Source: Eledone cirrhosa
Taxonomy: Eukaryota
Direction of reading: 5' to 3'
DNA: 64,000 bases
Assembly: GCA_964016885.1 (NCBI GenBank)
Contig: OZ024766.1
Location: 9,734,001-9,798,000, forward strand
Below are positions 36,610-40,752 of this stretch, in pieces (position 1 is the first letter of the stretch; every line of letters begins with the position of its first letter). The translations under genes were made by a program, and so were the position numbers. The notes below the pieces were generated by a model, which saw only the letters and a program-made list of their open reading frames with translations, searched no databases and was not told the origin of the DNA.

Positions 36610-36822
36610 ATGCTCAACCTGTGACATATCGGGAGCCAGACTTCTGGTGTTCGATAGCCTACTATGAACTAAACACCAGGGTGGGTGAGACCTTTCATGC
36701 TTCCCAACCATCCCTAACGGTCGATGGATTCACAGACCCTTCAAACTCCGAACGATTCTGTCTCGGTCTCTTGTCTAACATCAACAGGACCCAACAGGTA
36801 GAAATGACGAGAAGACATATAG
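36610..36822 (+). CDS. SMAD2/3: SMAD2/3 exon, start of MH2 ([22 protein letters not shown]...TRRHI)
   Basis: cttttcag acceptor, tag|gtaaaa donor; 213 nt; [19 protein letters not shown]. Confidence 0.97.
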
Positions 36823-39800
36823 GTAAAAATAGGGTTTTATTTTCATTAAAATATTTAGGGGTTTAATAAAAACAGGTACAATTGACGAGAAGACATATAG
36901 GTAAAAATAGGGTTTTATTTTCATTAAGATATTTTGGGGTTTAATAAAAACAGGTAGAAATGACGAGAAGACATATAGGTAAAGAAAGGGTTTTATTTTC
37001 ATTAAAATATTTAGGGATTTAATAAAAACAGGTAGAAATGACGAAGACATATAGGTAAAAATAGGGTTTTATTTTCATTAAAATATTTTGGGGTTTAATA
37101 AAAACAGGTAGAAATGACCAGAAGACATATAGGTAAAAATAGGGTTTTATTTTCATTAAAATATTTTGGGGTTTAATAAAAACAGGTAGAAATGACGAGA
37201 AGACATATAGGTAAAAATAGGGTTTTATTTTCATTAAAATATTTAGGGGTTTAATAAAAACAGGTAGAAATGACCAGAAGACATATAGGTAAAAATAGGG
37301 TTTTATTTTCATTAAGATATTTTGGGATTTAATAAAAACAGGTAGAAATGACGAAGACATATAGGTAAAAATAGGGTTTTATTTTCATTAAAATATTTAG
37401 GGGTTTAATAAAAACAGGTAGAAATGACCAGAAGACATATAGGTAAAAATAGGGTTTTATTTTCATTAAGATATTTTGGGGTTTAATAAAAACGGGTAGA
37501 AATGACCAGAAGACATATAGGTAAAAATAGGGTTTTATTTTCATTAAGATATTTTGGGGTTTAATAAAAACAGGTAGAAATGACGAGAAGACATATAGGT
37601 AAAAATAGGGTTTTATTTTCATTAAGATATTTTGGGGTTTAATAAAAACAGGTAGAAATGACGAGAAGACATATAGGTAAAAAAAGGGTTTTATTTTCAT
37701 TAAAATATTTTGGGGTTTAATAAAAACAGGTAGAAATGACGAGAAGACATATAGGTAAAGAAAGGGTTTTATTTTCATTAAGATATTTTGGGATTTAATA
37801 AAAACAGGTAGAAATGACGAAGACATATAGGTAAAAATAGGGTTTTATTTTCATTAAAATATTTAGGGGTTTAATAAAAACAGGTAGAATTGACGAGAAG
37901 ACATATAGGTAAAAATAGGGTTTTATTTTCATTAAGATATTTTGGGGTTTAATAAAAACAGGTAGAAATGACGAGAAGACATATAGGTAAAGAAAGGGTT
38001 TTATTTTCATTAAGATATTTTGGGGTTTAATAAAAACAGGTAGAAATGACGAGAAGACATATAGGTAAAAAAAGGGTTTTATTTTCATTAAAATATTTTG
38101 GGGTTTAATAAAAACAGGTAGAAATGACGAGAAGACATATAGGTAAAAATAGGGTTTTATTTTCATTAAAATATTTTGGGGTTTAATAAAAACAGGTAGA
38201 AATGACGAGAAGACATATAGGTAAAAATAGGGTTTTATTTTCATTAAAATATTTAGGGGTTTAATAAAAACAGGTAGAAATGACCAGAAGACATATAGGT
38301 AAAAATAGGGTTTTATTTTCATTAAGATATTTTGGGGTTTAATAAAAACAGGTAGAAATGACCAGAAGACATATAGGTAAAAATAGGGTTTTATTTTCAT
38401 TAAGATATTTTGGGGTTTAATAAAAACAGGTAGAAATGACCAGAAGACATATAGGTAAAAATAGGGTTTTATTTTCATTAAGATATTTTGGGGTTTAATA
38501 AAAACAGGTAGAAATGACCAGAAGACATATAGGTAAAAATAGGGTTTTATTTTCATTAAGATATTTTGGGGTTTAATAAAAACAGGTAGAAATGACCAGA
38601 AGACATATAGGTAAAAATAGGGTTTTATTTTCATTAAAATATTTTGGGGTTTAATAAAAACAGGTAGAAATGACGAGAAGACATATAGGTAAAAATAGGG
38701 TTTTATTTTCATTAAAATATTTAGGGGTTTAATAAAAACAGGTAGAAATGACCAGAAGACATATAGGTAAAAATAGGGTTTTATTTTCATTAAAATATTT
38801 TGGGGTTTAATAAAAACAGGTAGAAATGACGAGAAGACATATAGGTAAAAATAGGGTTTTATTTTCATTAAAATATTTTGGGGTTTAATAAAAACAGGTA
38901 GAAATGACGAGAAGACATATAGGTAAAAATAGGGTTTTATTTTCATTAAAATATTTTGGGGTTTAATAAAAACAGGTAGAAATGACGAGAAGACATATAG
39001 GTAAAGAAAGGGTTTTATTTTCATTAAGATATTTTGGGATTTAATAAAAACAGGTAGAAATGACGAGAAGACATATAGGTAAAAAAAGGGTTTTATTTTC
39101 ATTAAAATATTTTGGGGTTTAATAAAAACAGGTAGAATTGACGAGAAGACATATAGGTAAAAATAGGGTTTTATTTTCATTAAAATATTTAGGGGTTTAA
39201 TAAAAACAGGTAGAAATGACGAGAAGACATATAGGTAAAAAAGGGTTTTATTTTCATTAAAATATTTTGGGGTTTAATAAAAACAGGTAGAAATGACGAG
39301 AAGACATATAGGTAAAAATAGGGTTTTATTTTCATTAAAATATTTAGGGGTTTAATAAAAACAGGTAGAAATGACGAGAAGACATATAGGTAAAAATAGG
39401 GTTTTATTTTCATTAAGATATTTTGGGGTTTAATAAAAACAGGTAGAAATGACGAGAAGACATATAGGTAAAAAAAGGGTTTTATTTTCATTAAAATATT
39501 TTGGGGTTTAATAAAAACAGGTAGAAATGACCAGAAGACATATAGGTAAAAATAGGGTTTTATTTTCATTAAAATATTTAGGGGTTTAATAAAAACAGGT
39601 AGAAATGACGAGAAGACATATAGGTAAAAATAGGGTTTTATTTTCATTAAAATATTTAGGGGTTTAATAAAAACAGGTAGAAATGACGAGAAGACATATA
39701 GGTAAAAATAGGGTTTTATTTTCATTAAGATATTTTGGGGTTTAATAAAAACAGGTAGAAATGACGAGAAGACATATAGGTAAAAAAAGGGTTTTATTTT

Positions 39801-40752
39801 CATTAAAATATTTTGGGGTTTAATAAAAACAGGTAGAAATGACCAGAAGACATATAGGTAAAAATAGGGTTTTATTTTCATTAAAATATTTAGGGGTTTA
39901 ATAAAACAGGTAGAAATGACGAGAAGACATATAGGTAAAAATAGGGTTTTATTTTCATTAAGATATTTTGGGGTTTAATAAAAACAGGTAGAAATGACGA
40001 GAAGACATATAGGTAAAAAAAGGGTTTTATTTTCATTAAAATATTTTGGGGTTTAATAAAAACAGGTAGAAATGACGAGAAGACATATAGGTAAAAATAG
40101 GGTTTTATTTTCATTAAAATATTTTGGGGTTTAATAAAAACAGGTAGAAATGACGAGAAGACATATAGGTAAAAAAAGGGTTTTATTTTCATTAAGATAT
40201 TTTGGGATTTAATAAAAACAGGTAGAAATGACGAAGACATATAGGTAAAAATAGGGTTTTATTTTCATTAAAATATTTAGGGGTTTAATAAAAACAGGTA
40301 GAATTGACGAGAAGACATATAGGTAAAAATAGGGTTTTATTTTCATTAAAATATTTAGGGGTTTAATAAAAACAGGTAGAATTGACGAGAAGACATATAG
40401 GTAAAAATAGGGTTTTATTTTCATTAAAATATTTTGGGGTTTAATAAAAACAGGTAGAAATGACGAGAAGACATATAGGTAAAAATAGGGTTTTATTTTC
40501 ATTAAAATATTTAGGGGTTTAATAAAACAGGTAGAAATGACGAGAAGACATATAGGTAAAAATAGGGTTTTATTTTCATTAAGATATTTTGGGGTTTAAT
40601 AAAAACAGGTAGAAATGACGAGAAGACATATAGGTAAAAAAGGGTTTTATTTTCATTAAAATATTTTGGGGTTTAATAAAAACAGGTAGAAATGACGAGA
40701 AGACATATAGGTAAAGAAAGGGTTTTATTTTCATTAAGATATTTTGGGGTTT
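36793..40752 (+). repeat. 78-bp tandem array (~51 copies) spanning the SMAD exon 3' end and 5' splice site
   Basis: Unit aacaggtagaaatgacgagaagacatatag|gtaaaaatagggttttattttcattaaaatattttggggtttaataaa; donor GT at 36823, next at 36901. Confidence 0.97.

Follow-up and report, generated by a model that had tools for sequence, protein, structure and literature searches.

What becomes of a gene when the end of one of its own exons, together with the 5′ splice site, is repeated some 50 times down the following intron? The question is raised by a 64,000 nt stretch of Eledone cirrhosa DNA (the window), in which a tandem array lies across an exon–intron boundary of a SMAD2/3 gene. A first-pass annotation of the window had read the array as a set of competing donors, U1 sites and poly(A) signals whose copy number might tune the output of the gene, and which might also serve stepwise splicing.

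The host gene is well defined. Ten exons encode a protein of 431 aa that has no internal stop, ends in SSMS and shares 426 identities with the 430-aa Octopus sinensis protein P0004. Its MH1 domain (PF03165), linker, MH2 domain (PF03166) and C-terminal SSXS motif identify it as a member of the SMAD2/3 group. The first coding exon lies outside the window, 44 kb upstream (G000:C27:9690157-9690362), and is followed on the plus strand by exons at 22265-22303, 29372-29565, 31086-31229, 34116-34175 and 35725-35757 of the window. The array-bearing exon (36610..36822, plus strand, 213 nt) has AG/GT borders, encodes the first part of the MH2 domain (PF03166 positions 2-64), and over 70 aa shows 100% identity with the SMAD3 proteins of Octopus bimaculoides and O. 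sinensis. It is succeeded, also on the plus strand, by the next MH2 exon (43808..43945, 138 nt) and by exons at 45302-45446 and 50940-51063, the latter of which ends in SSMS and the stop codon. Genome searches found one SMAD2/3 locus; the further MH1 and MH2 matches, on C7 and C17, were to more distant SMADs. On C7 we also observed a one-piece MH2 domain belonging to another SMAD within an open frame of 3733 aa (G000:C7:10678986-10679480), which is probably preceded by stop-free repeat DNA.

Gene models from related octopuses differ from this structure in several places. The 39-nt exon at 22265-22303, in frame within MH1 (RGGLAGVEHFQNY), is found in the 430-aa model of O. sinensis but in none of the O. 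bimaculoides models, and on this comparison we regard it as an alternative MH1 insert. Vertebrate SMAD2 has a comparable insert, encoded by its exon 3. In O. bimaculoides models P0003 and P0129 the exon downstream of the array is missing or replaced, while seven other members of the cluster have it; we take the two exceptions to be probable model errors, and skipping of this exon was not seen among the contigs of the transcribed run (X4) described below. The read-through model of a relative, P0002, has 43 intron-coded residues in which no unit is repeated, which hints weakly at a lineage-specific array.

Tandem Repeats Finder placed the 78-bp minisatellite at 36793..40752 on the plus strand, with 50.9 copies and 96% matches, in agreement with the roughly 51 copies counted at first. 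As had been noted, the array starts 30 nt before the GT at 36823, and the first unit consists of the last 30 coding nt of the exon followed by the first 48 nt of the intron. The units are alike: mean pairwise identity is 96.6% over the 50 full units, 11 of the 78 columns vary, and the 23 distinct unit strings occur in ordered blocks. A search of 3.0 Gb of genome DNA found the unit at one locus, with all 22 matches inside the array (both figures being lower bounds), and the array is therefore locus-specific and outside any dispersed repeat family. Its far end adjoins a dispersed repeat (40760..41541, minus strand) that occurs in at least 40 places, contains a 163-bp tandem repeated 3.9 times and is 89% alike over 800 nt to L021. 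Translated from the minus strand, this repeat reads like the decayed 3′ end of what is presumably a LINE ORF2. RNA folding was unremarkable both around the first donor (z -1.23) and within the array (z +1.15), and no Rfam family was found in 36500-44100.

Each unit carries several sequence signals. The donor core TAG/GTAAA (the slash marking the boundary) is present in all 51 units, as TAG/GTAAAA in 46 and TAG/GTAAAG in five, which bears out the earlier description of repeated donors. That description had also given every unit a second AG/GT and an AATAAA, which is correct for most of them: CAG/GTAGAA occurs in 49 of 51 units (unit 2 has CAG/GTACAA and unit 10 lacks the AG), and AATAAA in 50 of 51, the exception being the last unit, which is 70 nt long. 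The authentic donor, TAG/GTAAAA at 36820..36828 on the plus strand (intron start 36823), matches the consensus at six of nine positions and ranks among the weakest two of eight SMAD2/3 donors. The first copy of the second motif, CAG/GTAGAA, is exonic (36795..36803, plus strand). Reading through the authentic donor leads to an in-frame TAA TAA at 36864..36870 (plus strand), the second TAA of which overlaps the first AATAAA (36865-36870). Translation would end at 36864-36866, as had been proposed, 34 nt upstream of the second donor (36898..36906, plus strand; would-be intron start 36901), and by reading-frame logic any distal donor would take in that stop. Measured from 36610, the exon is 213 nt long with the first donor, and would be 291, 369 or more nt with later ones. 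The read-through product would be 310 aa in length. It had been described as a truncated MH1 and linker protein without SSMS; the truncation stands, but the product would also retain positions 2-64 of the 174 of the MH2 profile, together with a short intron-coded tail.

An array of this regularity could in principle have been created by an assembler that inflated a short duplication. We found no support for such inflation, and two runs that behave as DNA, X1 and X2, argue against it. For six array contigs, depth divided by single-copy depth gave 26, 34, 19, 13, 30 and 4.4 copies in X1, and 20, 27, 15, 11, 23 and 2.4 in X2, where the assembly holds 23, 31, 18, 12, 27 and 4. The two runs may derive from the assembled sample, so they confirm the assembly rather than the array in a second individual or in other animals. 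Signal came from this one DNA sample; X5, one of three RAD-seq runs, had no read at the locus. Because contig depth matches the assembled copy counts, and because the 23 distinct unit strings stand in ordered blocks, we regard an assembly artefact as extremely improbable.

Whether the repeated donors are used was addressed with X4, a single run of unrecorded type available as contigs only, which we take to be RNA because its contigs are spliced. One contig joins a 33-nt upstream exon to 36610 at a depth of 47.3. A second contig, 496 nt long with a depth of 43.3 (approximately 92% of the exon depth), runs from 36793-36822 directly to 43808, the start of the next MH2 exon; by arithmetic, its length would accommodate every remaining exon and some 60 nt of 3′ UTR. 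No other donor within 36540-36912, a region that includes the second donor, is followed by a loose end, and there is none at the exonic CAG/GTAGAA. The host gene is hence represented both by an intact 431-aa frame and by a normally spliced mRNA. X4 depth over exon 43808-43945 was nil at a likeness of 97, though the junction contig, at a likeness of 90, holds the start of that exon; the surrounding intron stretch 42110-44071 is mostly dispersed repeat, and we give this blank no weight in either direction.

The sensitivity of this evidence is limited by the likeness of the units themselves. Among the 50 distal donors, 29 share the 30 nt upstream of the first donor and 21 can be distinguished by 31-letter words. 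No X4 junction contig arose from any of these 21, in contigs that drop rare forms. The 30 nt upstream of the unit 2 donor contain two private letters, which were in none of the X4 contigs (10 were compared, and the two at a likeness of 99 or more were the exon and junction contigs). The DNA-like runs also lack a contig with these letters, so that their absence from X4 is a weak test. Dominant use of the first donor is well supported, and our claim is confined to dominant use. The expectation of competing donors was not borne out in X4, which shows a single junction form at approximately 92% of exon depth and no distinguishable distal form.

The array itself is also represented in X4. Three array contigs have depths of 0.8-1.2 per copy (1.7-2.5% of exon depth) and one single-word contig has 2.25 (4.8%), and these contigs hold the common unit variants found in DNA rather than first-unit variants. 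The array depth fits ordinary unspliced RNA at about 2%. For one word, present in approximately 27 copies, the summed array signal is 24 against an exon depth of 47, and roughly up to 10% of RNAs (our own estimate) could end in the first units and be compatible with the signal. X4 showed no surplus of RNA confined to the first units, and so lends no support to an active array of poly(A) sites.

These observations bear on the proposal that the array is a dosage rheostat, in which modules of donor and poly(A) signal would divert SMAD2/3 RNA, by distal splicing or by cleavage within the array, and copy number would tune SMAD2/3 output. Distal donors would then lead to nonsense-mediated decay, and cleavage to nuclear decay or to the 310-aa product without SSMS, with the largest effect under low U1. 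Several features speak for this reading: every distal route takes in the stop, 50 sense-strand AATAAA motifs lie beside a weak donor, and the array words are transcribed above DNA carry-over, with X4/X1 depth ratios of 0.11-0.28 on array contigs where some repeat bins elsewhere in that intron fall below 0.001. A junction of 5′ splice site and poly(A) signal triggers PAXT decay in human cells, according to bioRxiv 10.1101/2024.07.23.604837, and diverted RNAs would be unstable and consequently under-seen. On the other hand, the junction stands at approximately 92% of exon depth, the RNA holds common DNA unit variants instead of first-unit ones, and in human F7 donor choice was described as unaffected by copy number (PMC1557585). 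The 40 nt after each AATAAA are T-poor (0.13-0.18), with a T-rich stretch beginning only from about 46 nt downstream, and the signals bear no sign of selection. On balance we consider the rheostat unlikely. The stronger form of the proposal, in which array length is a heritable, U1-sensitive dial on TGF-beta/activin signalling that sets how much SMAD2/3 RNA goes into decay or into a 310-aa product without the phosphorylated tail, we hold to be improbable. Were it true, nature would offer tests of 5′ splice site choice in octopus genes that carry between 50 and 335 copies of a donor.

The lack of a sign of selection follows from tests of chance and constraint. As all copies descend from one unit, the repetition of a signal is not in itself beyond chance, unlike the array, which is far beyond it. 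When the 50 intronic bases of the unit were shuffled 20,000 times, AATAAA turned up in 18% of the results, and other SMAD2/3 introns carry 12 more copies of the motif. The motif falls at the joint between units and is absent before the first unit and after the last, and may for that reason be a by-product of the founding duplication. The donor core and AATAAA are invariant in the array with chance probabilities of 0.28 and 0.39, or 0.10 together; with only 11 of 78 columns variable, such invariance is expected by chance. Donor and AATAAA are conserved no more than the rest of the unit.

A further reading invokes recursive splicing or a hidden 25-nt micro-exon, whereby an AG within the unit would act as acceptor and the next GT as a new donor, removing the intron stepwise. 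Each unit offers two AG/GT motifs, and by sequence logic a step from the exonic CAG/GT to a later CAG and on to TAG/GT would leave the mRNA unchanged in the case of 29 units and escape notice in contigs. A recursive splice site, however, is an AG/GT preceded by a polypyrimidine tract, and the pyrimidine fraction upstream of the two AGs of the unit is 0.20-0.40, compared with 0.60-0.85 at nine of nine real SMAD2/3 acceptors. The want of a pyrimidine tract argues against both recursive splicing and micro-exon use, the intron is only 7 kb long, and none of the junction contigs has the variant letters by which the remaining 21 units differ. We judge stepwise removal, which had been suggested from the motifs, to be very unlikely.

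The explanation we favour, and consider very probable, is that the array is a boundary-spanning minisatellite in an intact SMAD2/3 gene, whose exons are joined normally while the 50 downstream donors are probably ignored and leave with the excised intron. The array would have originated by local duplication across the exon–intron boundary, and its growth by slippage or unequal exchange is suggested by the recurrence of linked variants in blocks. The spliceosome would pick the most upstream donor, as it was found to do in human F7. If a later donor or an AATAAA were occasionally used, the outcome would be a stop-containing RNA that is likely to be degraded, in which case the array may be tolerated rather than selected. 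A stop with junctions downstream is a likely target of nonsense-mediated decay by the mammalian rule, from which cephalopods may differ. In the array a donor precedes each AATAAA by about 40 nt, a distance at which work in human, mouse and fly would lead one to expect suppression by U1; the protection range given in PMC5499120 is 500-1000 nt in fly, mouse and human. The same source states that selection generally acts against AATAAA in the neighbourhood of weak donors. The weakness of the authentic SMAD2/3 donor, together with such selection, counts against our preferred explanation.

The genomic surroundings are rich in material of this kind. Tandem repeats make up 58% of the window, among them 24 minisatellite arrays with a period of at least 25. 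Founding units amount to 4.4% of the collapsed window, and by chance 0.7-0.8 of the 16-18 gene junctions would fall inside one, a rough figure that includes the SMAD2/3 array itself and ignores selection. In a 160 kb region of G000:C9 around ECM29, a 45-bp array of approximately 335 copies (L031:1-5320 and L032:412-10000) starts at the end of an open frame, with CAA/GTAAGT; it sits between ECM29 profile matches, and its open frame is not itself profile-matched. In the same region a 41-bp array of 62 copies (L033:1695-4244) overlaps the end of a PF13001-matched exon, with TAG/GTGAGT, and after an interruption 55 more copies of its unit follow deeper in the ECM29 intron (L034:6760-9013).

Copies of exon ends also occur elsewhere in SMAD2/3. 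The end of the first coding exon and its donor is copied twice, as dispersed copies, in intron 1 (L046:3590 and L046:9312; G000:C27 at about 9692590 and 9698312), the longer copy being 96% alike over 119 nt with an internal deletion further upstream. At 51603-51675, in the microsatellite-rich 3′ UTR, lies a degenerate copy (78% over 73 nt) of the end of the coding sequence, from its last codons through the stop into the first part of the 3′ UTR; the translation of the copy also ends in SSMS. Local duplication of exon ends is common in the E. cirrhosa genome. The 154-bp arrays at 59956-62814 were considered as exon copies and rejected, as they are members of a dispersed family that recurs at many other places. 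Two further features of the gene's introns were observed. A long inverted repeat at 43381-43777, 87% alike with itself over about 400 columns, ends 30 nt before the acceptor of exon 43808; it is high-copy in DNA depth and so probably a small transposon, and its transcript is a possible candidate substrate for double-stranded RNA editing. The intron stretch at 31980-32980 resembles, by eye only, a decayed reverse-transcriptase (LINE) fragment.

The array is thus one more, and a fairly long, donor-repeating minisatellite. It suggests that a mollusc shares the mammalian preference for the first donor, here in the face of 50 competitors spaced 78 nt apart, and the locus is a warning for gene models and for read mapping. 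Greater importance would attach to the array only if SMAD2/3 output changed with allele length.

A literature search found nothing on the SMAD2/3 array locus in octopus, and arrays of the same kind have been described elsewhere. Like them, it runs head-to-tail, its first unit holds the authentic junction, and the splice signal is intact in 51 of 51 units. Minisatellites whose first monomer spans an exon–intron boundary have been reported in human F7, CBS, 6-16, LMNB2 and PDGF (PMC1557585). The closest is the 37-bp VNTR of F7 intron 7, in which the first monomer likewise lies over the boundary, identical donors are repeated down the intron and the normal junction is found; those downstream donors are functional and, in the experiments there described, unused whatever the copy number (PMC1557585, Borensztajn et al. 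2006), a rule demonstrated in mammalian cells and not in cephalopods. The two differ in scale, at 78 bp by 51 copies in SMAD2/3 and 37 bp by 5-9 copies in F7, and in the exonic part of each unit, at 30 and 4 nt, respectively. Unlike those of F7, the SMAD2/3 units also carry AATAAA and a second AG/GT. The same layout is listed in that source for PDGF (an 81-bp unit in 16-18 copies) and LMNB2 (100 bp, 10-15 copies), for both of which it gives the authentic donor as the only one used. In CBS intron 13 and the interferon-inducible gene 6-16, by contrast, the two nearest extra donors are used (PMC1557585); none was seen to be used in SMAD2/3, at low sensitivity. The ABCA7 intron 18 VNTR, one of several splicing-associated tandem repeats, is similarly an intronic repeat beside an exon, of a length that could alter splicing, and differs in that an effect of its length on splicing has been measured (PMC10078293). 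Among invertebrates, the amphioxus ‘mirage’ minisatellites of Adh3 and globin genes are boundary duplications with AG/GT in which regular splicing is apparently undisturbed, according to PMC3087553, and they share with the octopus array a concerted turnover of units; mirages of the globin genes comprise 3-6 units, each of 150-160 bp, and length instability has been demonstrated in amphioxus (PMC3087553). The SMAD2/3 array of E. cirrhosa belongs to this already described kind, represented by the F7-type minisatellites of human genes and the mirages of amphioxus.
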